Under the pieces are notes generated by a model that was given only the letters and a program-made list of their open reading frames with translations, ran no database searches and was not told the DNA's origin. Positions 1 to 64,000 of a DNA stretch of 64,000 nucleotides are shown here, piece after piece; the stretch's first letter is position 1; every line of letters begins with the position of its first letter. This DNA is from Candidatus Marinacidobacterales bacterium (lineage in GTDB: Bacteria > Acidobacteriota > Vicinamibacteria > Marinacidobacterales > DATDRI01). Both the position numbers and the translations under genes were made by a program. Where the stretch lies: NCBI GenBank assembly GCA_965219415.1, contig CBDCNP010000002.1, positions 2,976,001 through 3,040,000 of the forward strand, written 5' to 3'.

Positions 1-214
1 ACGGGCGCGACGCCAACCGCCTCGATGGTCCGGTGGAACGACTCGCAGAACTTCGAGTCCCGGTCGTGAATGAGGTATCGGCTCGAGGACAGAAAGCCGA
101 CATCTGCCATGGTCACGTTGCGAGCCACTTGAGTCATCCACTGTTCGTTCGGATGCGGCGTGATGCCGGCGACGTGGACTCGACGGGTAGCCAGGTGCAT
201 GAAGAACAGAACGT
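1..214 (-). pseudogene. Internal fragment of rve/integrase-core transposase (family C, like 62001-63068)
   Basis: Reverse strand reads VLFFMHLATRRVHVAGITPHPNEQWMTQVARN...[11 protein letters not shown]...EAVGVAP, co-linear with the intact ORF at 62001-63068; cut at 214 by an element end. Confidence 0.85.
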
Positions 215-361
215 CGTCCTGTGCCAAAACTCGGCCCTTTTGAAATAGACCACAAATCAGCAGCTTAGACGCCCTTGGAATCCGCGCAGAATCCAGGGTA
301 TTTCGCGCCGCAGGGCTGACTTCCGACCCATGGGCTGACGGATGAATAAATAGAAGGCACA
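215..361 (+). mobile_element. ~147-bp non-autonomous mini-element (ends CGTCCTGTGCCAAAAC ... AATAAATAGAAGGCACA)
   Basis: Near-identical copies at 1294-1440, 30158-30304 and 58833-58979(-); partial copies at 2832-2953 and 59456-59570. Confidence 0.85.
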
Positions 362-481
362 GCGCGGGGATGGGGGGGACCGCCTAATGGGATAACTACA
401 TTATGTCTATAACATAAAAAATAATGTGTTTACAGTAGTTTAACTGGCACTATAATTTAGCGTTGCGCGAGTTCCTGAACC

Positions 482-560
482 GATGCTTCCGCTATCAAGT
501 GTTGCTACGCCGTGTTTGAATGCTAGTGTCAGCTGGCCTGCCTGTGTCGGCGAACGCCAC
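482..560 (+). mobile_element. Partial IS1-family MITE end
   Basis: GATGCTTCCGCTATCAAGTGTTGCTACGCC... matches the start of the MITE at 41907-42151. Confidence 0.75.
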
Positions 561-734
561 AGAATTAATCTCGCTGTCTTTTCAACGTGTTCGTGCTGAC
601 AACAGAATGTATGAGGTTGTGGGTGCGCCGGGGCGTCGAACCCGGGAGGCCGGCAATTCTGCCGATCTTCTACACCTCCCCCGGCGCGCCCTCCGAAATG
701 TTGCTTCTAAGAAAGGGTTGAAAGGGTTGAAACA

Positions 735-1244
735 ATGCTGAAACTAACCTTACTCGTTGCTGCGGTCCTCGCTGGCATAGGATGCGGAGATAGCGGTGGA
801 TCGTCACCCGCCGCTCCAACTGTAGCCCCGAGCCCGAGCCCACAGTCACAACCCCGAGCAAATCTCACCCTAACCATCTACAATCTTTCCTACGTCGCCC
901 CGGGGTCCTTTGGTCCTGCCGATGTTTATTTCGATGCCGGCTTGAGAGAGACGGCCGGAACCGGCCTCGCCGTCAAAAATATTCACATGGATATTCTCAG
1001 ACCAAACGGAACTCGCGTGGAGCGCCAAACCTTCAACGAGGAAACGATCATACGGATTGCCGGCGGAAACCGCATTGAACCGAACGGCTCATATCGAGAC
1101 GTACTCGTTACAGGTGTGAGAACAAGTATCGCAAGAGGATCCACCGGATGGTTTTTTCGATTTACAGTACAATGGTTAGACGATACGGGAGCTCGGGGAG
1201 ACGACACCGCCGTAGTCCGCCTCAATAGTTGGAGCCCTCTATAA
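735..1244 (+). CDS. Putative lipoprotein
   Basis: Hydrophobic signal peptide ending AGIGC (lipobox-like), followed by a Pro/Ser-rich linker and a beta-rich domain. Confidence 0.65.
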   Translation: MLKLTLLVAAVLAGIGCGDSGGSSPAAPTVAPSPSPQSQPRANLTLTIYNLSYVAPGSFGPADVYFDAGLRETAGTGLAVKNIHMDILRPNGTRVERQTFNEETIIRIAGGNRIEPNGSYRDVLVTGVRTSIARGSTGWFFRFTVQWLDDTGARGDDTAVVRLNSWSPL

Positions 1245-1293
1245 GATGCTTGAGATCGTAGCGGGCGCTATCTATGAGATCTTGGTCGGCGGG

Positions 1294-1440
1294 CGTCCTG
1301 TGCCAAAACTCGGCCCTTTAGAAATAGACCACAAATCAGCAGCTTAGACGCCCTTGGAATCCGCGCAGAATCCAGGGTATTTCGCGCCGCAGGGCTGACT
1401 TCCGACCCATGGGCTGGCGAATGAATAAATAGAAGGCACA
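1294..1440 (+). mobile_element. ~147-bp mini-element copy
   Basis: Near-identical to 215-361. Confidence 0.85.
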
Positions 1441-61523: not shown

Positions 61524-61542
61524 CACGGCCGTGTTACACGAA

Positions 61543-62003
61543 TTACTCCGGCTCAACAAGGCTACGTGTGATCGCCGACCAATACAGGAATAGGCCGACG
61601 ATACTGAGACTGCCGAAAATGAACACCGCTTCAAGGCGCCCAGACAGACCCCAAAACCAGAATGAGTCCTCGGTGCCTTCCAGGTATCGGACCAGATTAT
61701 CGGCAAACGCCGCGAAGAAGAGCATCGAGCTCCAGTAGAGCGGGCCGTGATGCTGACCGAGTGGGTTGACTTCGTCCCGGGAGGGTCTTTCCCTGGCCTC
61801 AGCAAAGGACAGATAGCCAAAGCCCGTGACTATGTAAGCGATATTGAAGCCGACAAAGATCAAGATGGGTAGTGATACTCGCCACCACGACCAGTCGCTG
61901 AAAACGGCCAGCTTAAGGAGTGCCACGATCAAAGTGAGGGCGCCGAAGACAAAGAACCCGGTGGTCTGAATTTCCTTCTCGCCGGCCGTGGCTCCAGTTT
62001 TCA
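61543..62003 (-). CDS. Small membrane protein
   Basis: Four hydrophobic segments, LKL...DWSWWRV.LP; its ATG overlaps the transposase stop. Confidence 0.6.
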
Positions 62004-63068
62004 TGCCGCCTCTCGGTGGTAGTATCTCAGCAGCCCACCGAGCCTTTCCCGACAAAGGATTGGCCCTTCGCGGGGGCCGCTGCTTTCTACAGACGGAAAG
62101 AGAATGACGTTTTCCTTGCCTTGATGGTTCCTCTCTCCATGATAATGAGCGAGATAGGAAGCCAGACACCGTCTGAATGCTGGCTCGCCGAACAAGATCA
62201 GCTTCGATAGACATTCTTCCTTCACAGACTTCACCCAGCGCTCCGCGAAGGAGTTCAAATTCGGGCTTCTCGCAGGCAGTTTGACGGTCTTGATACCCAC
62301 CTCTTCGAGTGTCCGCTGAAACGACGCGCAGAATTTCGAGTCGCGATCGTGGATCAAGTAGCGGGTCGAGCAAAGAAAGCCGACATCCGCCATGGTCACA
62401 TTCCGGACCACTTGGGTCATCCACCTTTCGTCTGGATAGGGTGTGATACCGGCAATATGAACGCGTCGCGTAGCCAGGTGTATGAAGAATAAAACGTAGT
62501 AGGTGACCAGCCCGGACTTCGTCCACACCTCCGCGGTGAAGAAATCCGTTGCCGCAAGGACGTCCATGTGCGAGCGGATGAACTCGTTCCACGTCGTTGT
62601 CTTTTCTCGCTCCGGCGCGGGCGGTATACTGTGGCGCTTCAGTATGTTGCCGACGGTTTGGTCGCTCGCTCGATACCCGAGGTTCGCCATGGCCCCGGCA
62701 ATGCGATCATAGCCCCACGATCGGTTCTCTCTCGCGAAGCGGATAATCAGCTGTTCGATCTTTTCGTCGATTCGTGGTCGCCCCGGATACGTCCGGTTCT
62801 TGGAACCGTCGAACTTCCTGGCGATGAGCTTGCGGTGCCACCCGAGAATCGTATCGGGCCTGACGATACTCGCTACCTCTTCGAGCGCGCGCTTGCCGAG
62901 CTGTTTTCCGATCTCCGCCAAGGTTCTCCGCTCACCATCGGTCAGGCGCAAACGGCCTTGCAGCTGATCTCGAAGAATACGATTCTCGGTAACGAGGTAC
63001 TCGTTGCGCAGGAGCAGTTCTCGGTCGACCGATCCCGTGATGTACGCCAGCATTGTCTTCCAGTCCAT
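62001..63068 (-). CDS. Integrase-core (rve) DDE transposase, family C
   Basis: LRNEYL..ENRIL, WGYDRI, AATDFFTAEV, YLIHDRDSKF, SPNLNSFAERW; left end CGTCTGGTCAATAAAAC at 63193. Confidence 0.92.
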   Translation of the reverse strand: MDWKTMLAYITGSVDRELLLRNEYLVTENRILRDQLQGRLRLTDGERRTLAEIGKQLGKRALEEVASIVRPDTILGWHRKLIARKFDGSKNRTYPGRPRIDEKIEQLIIRFARENRSWGYDRIAGAMANLGYRASDQTVGNILKRHSIPPAPEREKTTTWNEFIRSHMDVLAATDFFTAEVWTKSGLVTYYVLFFIHLATRRVHIAGITPYPDERWMTQVVRNVTMADVGFLCSTRYLIHDRDSKFCASFQRTLEEVGIKTVKLPARSPNLNSFAERWVKSVKEECLSKLILFGEPAFRRCLASYLAHYHGERNHQGKENVILFPSVESSGPREGPILCRERLGGLLRYYHREAA

Positions 63069-63193
63069 TGTGTCTCCCCGGAGAACTAGAGTAAGTACCT
63101 GACCACGACCTGTGATTCAACCGGTCTAACAGACCGAGGCCAAGCCCTCTCAAACTGGCCTACGGGAGCGCGTTTGAGTTTATTGACCAGACG

Positions 63194-63462
63194 GGTACTA
63201 TCGCGACGCTTGATCCCTAACTCTTAACCTGTCCACGAAAGCGGGGTCACTTCAGAACGCGCAGCGGGTCAGCACTTTGCACCTTCCCCAAGGCCGCTTG
63301 AATCCGCTATCGCGGTCGGATACGTATTCCAGTTCAGCGGAAGGAGTCGCGATGGACTGGAAGAGCATGCTGAGCTACATCTCAGGGTCCGTGGATGAGG
63401 AGTTGCTCCTACGCAACGAGTATCTTGTGGCCGAGAATCGAGTTCTTCGAAATCAGCTCAAG
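63194..63462 (+). mobile_element. IS3 right-end remnant plus rve-C 5' remnant
   Basis: 63194-63254 is the reverse complement of 24528-24588; MDWKSMLSYISGSVDEELLLRNEY from 63352. Confidence 0.8.
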
Positions 63463-63625
63463 GCGAGGAGGTTGAGCCAAGTCTTCTTCCCCATAGCAGA
63501 CGTCGATCCTCATAGTCTTCGACGAACTCTCTGGCTGGTACTGTCAAGTTTTCCACGACCTGACGGCCACCCCGAATGAATGAAACGCGGTAGTCTCTGG
63601 AGGTGGAAAACTAGACAATGCCGTC

Positions 63626-64000
63626 TCAAAGGCTGTCGAAGAAATCCTGCCTAGGCTTGACAACTTCAACGGTTTCAGTGCTGATGCCCAATCCGAGCTT
63701 CCTCAGCAGGATGCAAAGATCAATACCGTCGATCAGATCGATAGCCGGTGCTCCGTCCCTCACGGCTTCTCGCTTTGCATCCTGGGTGAACCCTCCTGTG
63801 GTGATGAACAGCCCCTTGTCTGCGCGACCGACCATCGCTCCCCTGAAGTCCCGGATCGCAGACGCACTGACCGAACCCGTGTACCGCTTGCACTGAAAGC
63901 GAACATGAAAGGAGATGAGGTTGACCCGCAACACGCCGGAGCCGTCGATGCCACCGTCGCCAGGGCGGCCCATTACTTCCACCTTCGTAAATCCTGATTC
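63626..64000 (-). CDS. mrr: Mrr-family restriction endonuclease, C-terminal part (runs off the window)
   Basis: GRPGDGGIDG...FQCKRY.GSV...IRDFRG...GLFITTG.FT..A...IDLIDG. Confidence 0.88.
   Translation of the reverse strand, partial: ESGFTKVEVMGRPGDGGIDGSGVLRVNLISFHVRFQCKRYTGSVSASAIRDFRGAMVGRADKGLFITTGGFTQDAKREAVRDGAPAIDLIDGIDLCILLRKLGLGISTETVEVVKPRQDFFDSL

Follow-up and report, generated by a model that had tools for sequence, protein, structure and literature searches.

The 64,000-bp stretch of DNA analyzed here, referred to as the window (G000:C3:2976001–3040000), belongs to an acidobacterial metagenome-assembled genome (MAG), G000, with 8.45% marker contamination, whose 8.05 Mb are assembled in three contigs (C1, C2, and the main contig C3). 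It is filled with insertion sequences (ISs), mini-elements, and pieces of genes (Table 1). The ISs comprise the rve-type elements IS-A and ISK, the IS1-like ISB, and members of the IS256, IS3, IS110, and IS1 families. Between them lie restriction–modification genes, a Na/Pi cotransporter gene, a piece of an Asp/Glu racemase gene, and further cargo. Several of these families, namely the rve-type elements with their mini-elements and ISB, lack target-site duplications (TSDs) and stand between pieces of unrelated DNA, while IS3 and IS256 alongside them behave normally. Roughly 70% of the window has further copies in the genome. At an identity of at least 80%, 19,174 of the 64,000 bases have no other genome copy, 14,641 have one or two, 10,499 have 3 to 19, and 19,686 have 20 or more.

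A preliminary description of the window had recognized five recurrent end motifs, designated A, E, C, G, and D, and its tallies are reproduced. About 19 A ends were reported and 18 are found with up to one mismatch (15 exact). The 11 E ends are all recovered with up to one mismatch (9 exact), as are the 13 C ends (10 exact). For the roughly 8 G ends, 6 exact matches and 9 with up to one mismatch are present, and for the 5 D ends, 2 exact matches and 6 with up to two mismatches. In shuffle controls, A, E, C, and D are never matched at zero or one mismatch and an exact G is matched at most once; looser searches yield a maximum of two or three matches, and the observed count of each end is never reached. 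The motif of end A requires one correction, namely an additional, less conserved ACCC just outside CGTCC.

The ends are the termini of several related, IS481/IS3-like rve_3 families (IS-A, ISK, C, G, and D), of the IS1-like ISB, and of many nonautonomous or hybrid mini-elements. End A terminates IS-A, which has inverted arms of ~100 bp and encodes a 371-aa rve_3/HTH_32 transposase. Full copies of the C family (1.2 kb) are found elsewhere in the genome, and a third rve_3 transposase is encoded in the window at 62004–63068. The rve-type transposases are 349 to 371 aa long and match rve_3 and HTH_32 in profile scans. Their NCBIfam scores of 84 to 99 bits are all far below the cut-offs of 224 (IS481) and 160 (IS3); the best match is the IS481 model for IS-A and the 62004–63068 transposase, and for ISK the IS3 model is slightly ahead. 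The N-terminus of ISB is an IS1-like zinc finger, and its IS1-type DDE match reaches 84.9 bits, with the cut-off at 100. Metagenomes contain thousands of relatives of the IS-A protein; wherever a source gives them a name, it is only “transposase” or “InsO family.”

Most ends sit on mini-elements. By exact ends, AE147/148 accounts for 60 copies and AE177–179 for about 30, and AA317 and AE92 occur as well; by BLAST, 70 full copies of AE147 and 149 copies of BB165 are present genome-wide. The first ~125 bp of AE147 are common to the multi-copy 3.3-kb element of the window. Hybrid mini-elements, which carry ends from two families, keep constant lengths across many different contexts (AB125 and AB102, for example). 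The A+B classes of 102 and 124–126 bp together amount to 47 copies (28 for 124–126 bp alone); the A+G (123 bp) and A+C (309 bp) classes are smaller. The hybrids seem to have been amplified as units. An autonomous A–E parent element was sought in this genome and not found.

TSDs are the classical mark left by DDE transposition, by which annotation tools delimit IS elements. Nine elements of the window (at 215, 1294, 42244, 43300, 45106, 47000, 50211, 52125, and 58833) had been listed as lacking a TSD, and their flanks indeed show no direct repeat. The clean TSDs ascribed to other elements are likewise present, with AGGGAGG(G) around IS256, GTG around IS3, and the 8-bp GGCTTGCG around the IS1-type transporter IS. 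The absence holds genome-wide. Among 156 A/E-bounded elements compared at all offsets, at most four matches occur at k = 4, two at k = 5, and one at k = 6, and 84 B-bounded elements give no TSD at k = 8–10. Direct repeats of 5 to 9 bp at the ends stay at chance level in ISK (2/48), AE147 (2/70), and AE178 (2/38), and no ISB copy (0/31) has a repeat of 7 to 9 bp. In the controls, a 3–4-bp repeat is found in 33 of 36 IS3 copies and a 7–9-bp repeat in 10 of 26 IS256 copies. The flanks of 52 IS-A copies from other MAGs, read by eye, contain no TSD and share only ACCC...GGGT outside the ends.

The lack of TSDs is not explained by age, because the identities to the nearest copy match those of IS256 and young copies are also almost without repeats. 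The median identity to the nearest copy is 98.9% in ISK, 98.8% in ISB, 99.3% in AE147, and 99.4% in AE178, and 99.1% in IS256. Among copies that are at least 99% identical to another copy, a repeat is present in 1 of 21 (ISK), 0 of 10 (ISB), and 8 of 21 (IS256).

The second property concerns the DNA on both sides of the elements. An IS that has landed within another repeat can be compared with uninterrupted copies of this repeat, which represent the empty site; the comparison was made with 80-bp flanks and with IS3 and IS256 as controls. Empty-site paralogs are found for none of 48 ISK copies, 31 ISB copies, and 11 full IS-A copies, and for 14 of 36 IS3 and 3 of 26 IS256 copies. When both flanks are multi-copy, the counts are 0/25, 0/14, and 0/6 for ISK, ISB, and IS-A, respectively, and 14/24 and 3/7 for IS3 and IS256. 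The overlaps at the IS3 sites are 3 to 4 bp; those at the IS256 sites are 8 bp in two cases, and the third has a single 5-bp match. Since the controls work in the same test, unrelated flanks are a property of these families, and the earlier suggestion that rve ends are joints between unrelated DNA is borne out genome-wide. Over 883 end pairs, 80-bp flanks return one doubtful empty-site case and 150-bp low-copy flanks return none, the latter search having low power with most flanks single-copy. Ten mini-elements have both flanks in known repeats; nine of these join two different repeats, and one lies in a single repeat from which 627 bp are missing. Two further tests add little. Reading frames that span an element are no commoner than with shuffled partners in every family, the IS3 and IS256 controls included, which renders the test uninformative. 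Few copies have a common flank, and no pattern of “IS plus one flank” emerges.

The junctions themselves look transposase-made. Outside the rve-type ends, position −2 is G or C in 96 to 100% of cases, and position −1 is usually C and hardly ever A. The preference is symmetric at both ends of ISK, the A, C, and G ends also favor A or T at −4, and ISB has no strong flank preference. Ends frequently lie directly against one another. At six or more loci, with differing outer flanks, a B end comes after the first 10 nt of an A end, and at least three loci have a B end 1 nt outside an A end. Two deletions are anchored at an end, the 627 bp of host repeat mentioned above, which are missing across an AE178 copy, and 54 bp of cargo that are missing beside the E end in one of three copies of the Na/Pi module.

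This module illustrates how cargo is copied. Its three genome copies are 98.4 to 98.6% identical and have the E-end/cargo and cargo/A-end junctions in common. They diverge past the first 55 to 95 bp of the right A arm, which continues as a full IS-A, an AE178, or a rearranged arm. In the copy with the 54-bp deletion, a different mini-element carries the E end. A-type elements stand on both sides of the module, as in a compound transposon, whose cargo moves as a unit between two copies of one IS family. The outer elements differ, however, and no duplication surrounds the whole; arm recombination fits this arrangement as well as a compound transposon does. The copying points to homologous recombination between A arms together with an end-anchored deletion. 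Adjacent deletion, which had been named as the plainer alternative to capture, fits the sole module that was dissected.

The remaining cargo is mixed. Defense-type genes are frequent, with a methyltransferase and a PbeA-like helicase, hsdS/hsdM and a truncated hsdR, and HerA-like, PD-Lambda-2_B-like, and RelE genes. Ordinary genes are present too, among them multi-copy ones, namely the Na/Pi cotransporter (3), the Asp/Glu racemase (6), PNPOx (~7), and RmuC (2). Truncated pieces include hsdR, the racemase, and solute-binding-protein genes. The five further racemase copies are 96.7 to 99.5% identical and differ in their truncation points. The description of hsdR as a cut gene is correct, as its 389-aa fragment equals residues 431 to 820 of a paralogue that is intact at 820 aa, with 94% aa identity between the two. 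Intact originals at end-free sites had been proposed as something to look for in the genome, and hsdR has one: the paralogue belongs to a complete hsdR-M-S operon at C3:4.42 Mb, with no ISK end at the breakpoint position. The 827-bp piece at 23701–24527 is 99.9% identical to C3:4395561–4396387, where low-copy sequence runs on for ~100 bp beyond both sides. The PbeA-like helicase ORF (397 aa, 7632–8825) covers only positions 250 to 635 of the 672-position PbeA model and may be N-terminally truncated or split. The IS1-family transporter IS contains a PD-Lambda-2_B-like HTH/M78 gene and an IS1-type DDE gene. The proposed capture of neighboring DNA thus stands in part: some pieces are copied together with IS junctions (the Na/Pi module three times, the racemase six times, and the 827-bp piece), but much of the cargo is truncated and does not form complete cassettes.

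Table 1. Elements, genes, and gene pieces in the 64,000-bp window.
Feature	Position	Strand	Remarks
AE147 mini-element (A end to E end)	215..361	+	Copies at 1294-1440 (+) and 58833-58979 (-)
Composite A'-G-E element	1970..2320	+	Internal G end at 2092
3.3-kb element with A arm at start; DUF2924 and frameshifted large serine recombinase	2830..6144	+	~20 full or partial copies; right boundary fuzzy (6125-6144)
Single-copy cargo: type II-like DNA methyltransferase, PbeA-like helicase ORF, 260-aa ORF	6476..9604	+	
IS256-family element (Mutator-type transposase)	9628..10994	-	AGGGAGG(G) duplication
85-bp mini-element with two C ends (14806-14890)	14806..14945	.	Abuts a 55-bp A-arm fragment reaching to 14945
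ISB, 1.2-kb IS1-like element, ends GGTGCTTCCGC	17784..18983	+	No target duplication; inverted second copy at 22501-23700
IS1-family transporter IS	19110..22486	+	23-nt inverted repeats (19110-19132, 22464-22486); 8-bp GGCTTGCG duplication
827-bp cargo piece (cupin-like ORF)	23701..24527	+	Bounded by an ISB end and an IS3 end
IS3-family element	24528..25785	-	GTG on either side
Asp/Glu racemase piece	25787..26769	+	Five other copies
IS110-family transposase gene between B-type ends	28468..30157	+	Gene frameshifted (28524-29601); right B end abuts an A end at 30156/30157
Type I restriction-modification hsdS, hsdM, and hsdR fragment	34648..38975	-	C-terminal 389 aa of hsdR
ISK 3'-end fragment	39047..39350	+	304 bp; terminus is the hsdR cut point
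HerA-like (DUF87) 759-aa gene	39612..41891	-	Single-copy; B-end fragment follows from 41907
AE178 mini-element	42244..42421	+	IS-A-type arm
ISK, 1.29-kb rve_3 element, ends TGTCC...GCACA	43300..44584	-	No target duplication; second copy at 52125-53410
IS-A, 1.43 kb	45104..46540	-	Second copy with disrupted gene at 50209-51643
Na/Pi module: AE178 (47000-47176), Na/Pi-cotransporter-PhoU gene, start of next A arm	46996..50292	+	
RmuC-family gene	53587..55248	-	Second copy elsewhere, 99.1% identical over 53580-55412
BB165 mini-element	55625..55790	+	Two B ends
AB125 hybrid	58204..58328	+	26 bp of A end and ~100 bp of B arm

A CRISPR-like array is located at 15807–17773. It consists of ~27 units with a 37-nt repeat (GTGTCGCCGGGGTTTACTCCCCGGCCTTCGTTGAGCG), spacers of ~36 nt, and a period of 73. 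A two-spacer unit is duplicated exactly (16481–16808), and only ~10 bp separate the end of the array from the ISB copy at 17784. Among the scanned ORFs of the window, none matches a cas family. Rfam and tRNA scans of the window give no matches.

The ends are not confined to the window. The genome contains 456 exact A ends, of which 429 are on C3, 27 on C2, and none on C1; the other ends follow with 212 (E), 171 (G), 159 (C), and 64 (D). They are missing from the first 1.8 Mb of C3 save for a few near 0.6–0.8 Mb, and C1 is nearly free of them. Dense blocks lie at 1.8–1.9, 2.5–2.7, 2.9–3.1, 3.3–3.6, 3.9–4.0, and 4.1–5.69 Mb of C3, adding up to ~40% of this contig; on C2, the initial 100 kb are dense as well. 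Long ORFs cover 0.57 to 0.78 of the end-dense bins (most ≤0.68) versus mostly 0.75 to 0.90 elsewhere. The idea that captured DNA is stacked at one locus does not agree with this distribution, nor with the recurrence of the ends in related genomes. IS3 and IS256 are present on all contigs. On C1 (2.07 Mb), their copies are near-identical to those of C3, none of the 456 exact A ends is found, and other rve-type ends are almost nil. C1 may be a separate replicon that the rve families have not reached, or the contig of a close relative that was binned in.

Six of 20 relatives searched contain the A-end 16-mer, in 31 to 483 copies, and they represent three genera and two families. The IS-A transposase has at least 447 relatives; among the 80 retained (80–96% aa identity), 79 come from MAGs titled Candidatus Marinacidobacterales. 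A 3.2-kb module, which consists of the last 220 bp of IS-A and 3 kb of cargo, is 99.4% identical between G000:C3:659010–662235 and G001:C1:6253101–6256326. G001 is a genome of the same genus, in which the junction is identical and the surroundings differ, and neighboring core DNA is 87% identical. These identities suggest that genomes have recently exchanged IS-linked modules. Past the break at the isolated IS-A of C3:657803, G001 continues with sequence that has no G000 counterpart, and no empty site was obtained. The single-copy cargo at 6145–9605 has no DNA match in the 20 relatives.

The explanation favored here, which is given about an even chance, is a rearrangement-coupled, TSD-less transposition that is intrinsic to these families and acts together with arm-mediated recombination in a decaying accessory compartment. 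The window is a representative stretch of this IS-saturated compartment. Each end of these families is joined to a site with G or C followed by C outside, and the other flank is unrelated DNA. While these flank properties, the end counts, the absence of TSDs, the two end-anchored deletions, and the copied modules are observed directly, the chemistry is inferred: a replicative or cointegrate-type transposition, or a joining at breaks, which would yield adjacent deletions, inversions, and fusions. Homologous recombination between A-type arms of 55 to 100 bp could then excise and reinsert “arm–cargo–arm” modules, through which neighboring genes would be copied and stacked. A further-reaching proposal is more tentative and rather doubtful. 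It holds that the rve_3 clade (IS-A, ISK, C, G, and D), common in these acidobacterial MAGs, is TSD-less throughout and always breaks the continuity of its target, each end performing an independent “break-and-join” at G/C–C sites. The elements would then be portable joints that truncate and shuffle genes and, via their long arms, copy them within and between genomes.

Several observations weigh against the favored explanation. The mini-elements are short, so that 99% identity means one or two differences and dating is poor. Of the 26 IS256 copies, 16 are without a TSD, including 4 of the 7 that lie in IS-rich blocks, and later scrambling is therefore common in this genome. Split TSDs, with the same 7–9-mer on two different copies, would be predicted by a classical replicative mode with a long TSD, and none were found beyond matches from repeated flanks. 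No pre-insertion site was recovered for any TSD-less family, and a simple TSD-less insertion whose flank was lost later is also compatible with the data. For A, C, and G elements, the duplication of a palindromic CG (2 bp) would be indistinguishable from the inverted repeat. The assembly is a MAG with the contamination given above, and the public assembled contigs (Logan) are too short to bridge any element, since none of those listed extends for 31 letters to either side of an IS junction. Where the Logan contigs do align, those of runs X7 and X10 show no differences over ~39.6–41.9 kb and 42.4–43.2 kb and one at 48.96–50.13 kb; those of X11 and X12 show a few differences. The joints listed for the contigs are jumps between repeat copies. 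An apparent excess of split TSDs at B ends (60 matches at k = 9) was discarded, as it came from B ends abutting A ends and not from shared targets.

Plain decay is the strongest of the rivals and is still considered unlikely. Here the elements would be ordinary TSD-making ISs, and adjacent deletions, nested insertions, and homologous recombination among hundreds of copies, in weakly selected DNA, would have erased every TSD and parted the flanks. Degeneration, inter-IS recombination, and adjacent deletion are the usual causes of missing TSDs according to the passages of PMC11708052 on this point. The many IS256 copies without a TSD, the two end-anchored deletions, the lower long-ORF cover of the IS-rich blocks, and the Na/Pi module, which arm recombination explains, all agree with decay. 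It does not account for repeats at chance level in families whose copies are as similar as those of IS256 (ISK, 2/48; ISB, 0/31; AE147, 2/70; versus 10/26 in IS256), nor for the complete lack of empty-site paralogs compared to 14/36 in IS3. Had ISK decayed no faster than IS256, about a dozen or more of its sites should still be intact.

A cryptic short TSD is improbable. In this case, insertion would be ordinary, and the A, C, and G families would duplicate a palindromic CG within the palindromic target W-N-S-C-CG-G-S-N-W. A precedent exists in IS481, whose palindromic target NCTAGN hides its duplication. Fittingly, all A, C, and G ends begin with CG, the outside preference fades with distance from the end, and the left flank of IS-A ends in CC and its right flank begins with GG. 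However, the ISK, D, and E ends begin with TG and have no fixed outside dinucleotide, CG does not follow the E side of AE elements, and flanks that are never contiguous remain unexplained.

The integron-like or pdif-like array of the preliminary description, in which IS ends serve as recombination sites that capture and stack cassettes at one locus, is very improbable. Its core intuition, that the ends are joints and some cargo is copied, is right, and as in integron cassette arrays and pdif modules, short conserved sites lie between unrelated gene pieces, some of which have copies or intact originals elsewhere. The sites here are, unlike in those systems, termini of elements with their own DDE transposases, and they are spread over the end-dense blocks of the main contig and also C2. 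Integron cassettes are complete genes, each with an attC site, that share one orientation next to an IntI tyrosine-recombinase gene, and pdif modules are bounded by 28-bp XerC/XerD sites; the boundaries in the window are IS termini, and truncated genes are frequent among the pieces. Neighboring copies are not ordered by orientation, with same versus opposite counts of 32/19, 12/7, 17/19, and 7/5, none of them significant. No Pfam or NCBIfam match to a tyrosine-recombinase (integrase) family is found among ~50 scanned window ORFs, which are part of all ORFs, and the sole serine recombinase of the window is frameshifted and belongs to the multi-copy 3.3-kb element. On the favored explanation, no dedicated cassette machinery is involved. 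An assembly artefact, in which misjoining through repeats in a contaminated MAG whose elements no public contig bridges produced false unrelated flanks, is hardly credible, as IS3 and IS256 keep clean TSDs and empty sites in the same assembly, long reads far exceed the 147–178-bp elements in length, the independent assembly G001 has the same IS-A/flank junction, and TSDs are equally absent from the 52 IS-A copies of other MAGs.

The significance of these families lies in the combination of abundance, absence of the usual transposition footprint, and position at rearrangement joints, next to normally behaving IS3 and IS256. If it is intrinsic, TSD-less transposition would be an unstudied mode of DDE transposition and would explain the build-up of large compartments, rich in gene fragments and defense genes, in these large genomes. 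Modules of “IS end plus cargo” appear to pass between species at ~99% identity. If the break-and-join proposal is true, the compartment would be a transposase-driven gene-shuffling system, functionally near the idea of the preliminary description. If only decay is at work, the window amounts to a graveyard of ISs that is extreme but ordinary. The literature searched yielded neither a description of these elements nor the name Marinacidobacterales.

Among known IS families, IS481 shares with the rve-type elements a single rve-type transposase with an HTH domain and a length of ~1.2 to 1.4 kb. Its target duplications range from 4 to 15 bp. The transposases of the window differ from it in their scores (99, 84, and 92.6 bits against the cut-off of 224), and IS-A differs in its ~100-bp arms and asymmetric A–E mini-elements. 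Repeats occur only at chance level, which does not place the elements in IS481, though a 2-bp CG duplication would be compatible. ISB resembles IS1 in its zinc-finger N-terminus and DDE match, and IS1 makes adjacent deletions. ISB is set apart from the IS1 family by its score below the cut-off and by the absence of 7–9-bp duplications in all 31 copies, 8–9 bp being typical of the family; the transporter IS at 19110–22486 does have the 8-bp duplication of an IS1 member.

The behavior of these families is closer to that of IS26/IS6. Copies of IS26 are often without flanking repeats and lie between unrelated DNA, and intramolecular replicative transposition leads to deletions, inversions, and gene clusters, as set out in the parts of PMC7986276 that deal with it. 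A circle of one IS26 and neighboring DNA can reinsert beside another copy, and such translocatable units have been likened to IS1-based circles (PMC7986276, same parts). The Na/Pi module between directly oriented A-type elements is similar to these units. The transposases are, however, not of the IS6 type, as no IS6 model is matched and the matches are to rve_3, HTH_32, and the IS481, IS3, and IS1 models. The ends differ, the 8-bp duplication is found on no copy of the TSD-less families, and adjacent copies show no bias toward direct orientation and form no directly oriented arrays. A second parallel is provided by Ngan et al. 2024 (PMC11708052), who describe, in the passages concerned, IS5 and IS481 movements without TSDs at the center of a deletion or duplication and propose insertion into existing DNA breaks. 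The movements described there are rare single events in laboratory strains, whereas here entire families, hundreds of copies strong, would move in this way as a rule. IS26/IS6 (PMC7986276) and the TSD-less movements of Ngan et al. (PMC11708052), as far as these passages describe them, are the closest known behaviors, and the families of the window are best read as a new variant of known IS behavior.

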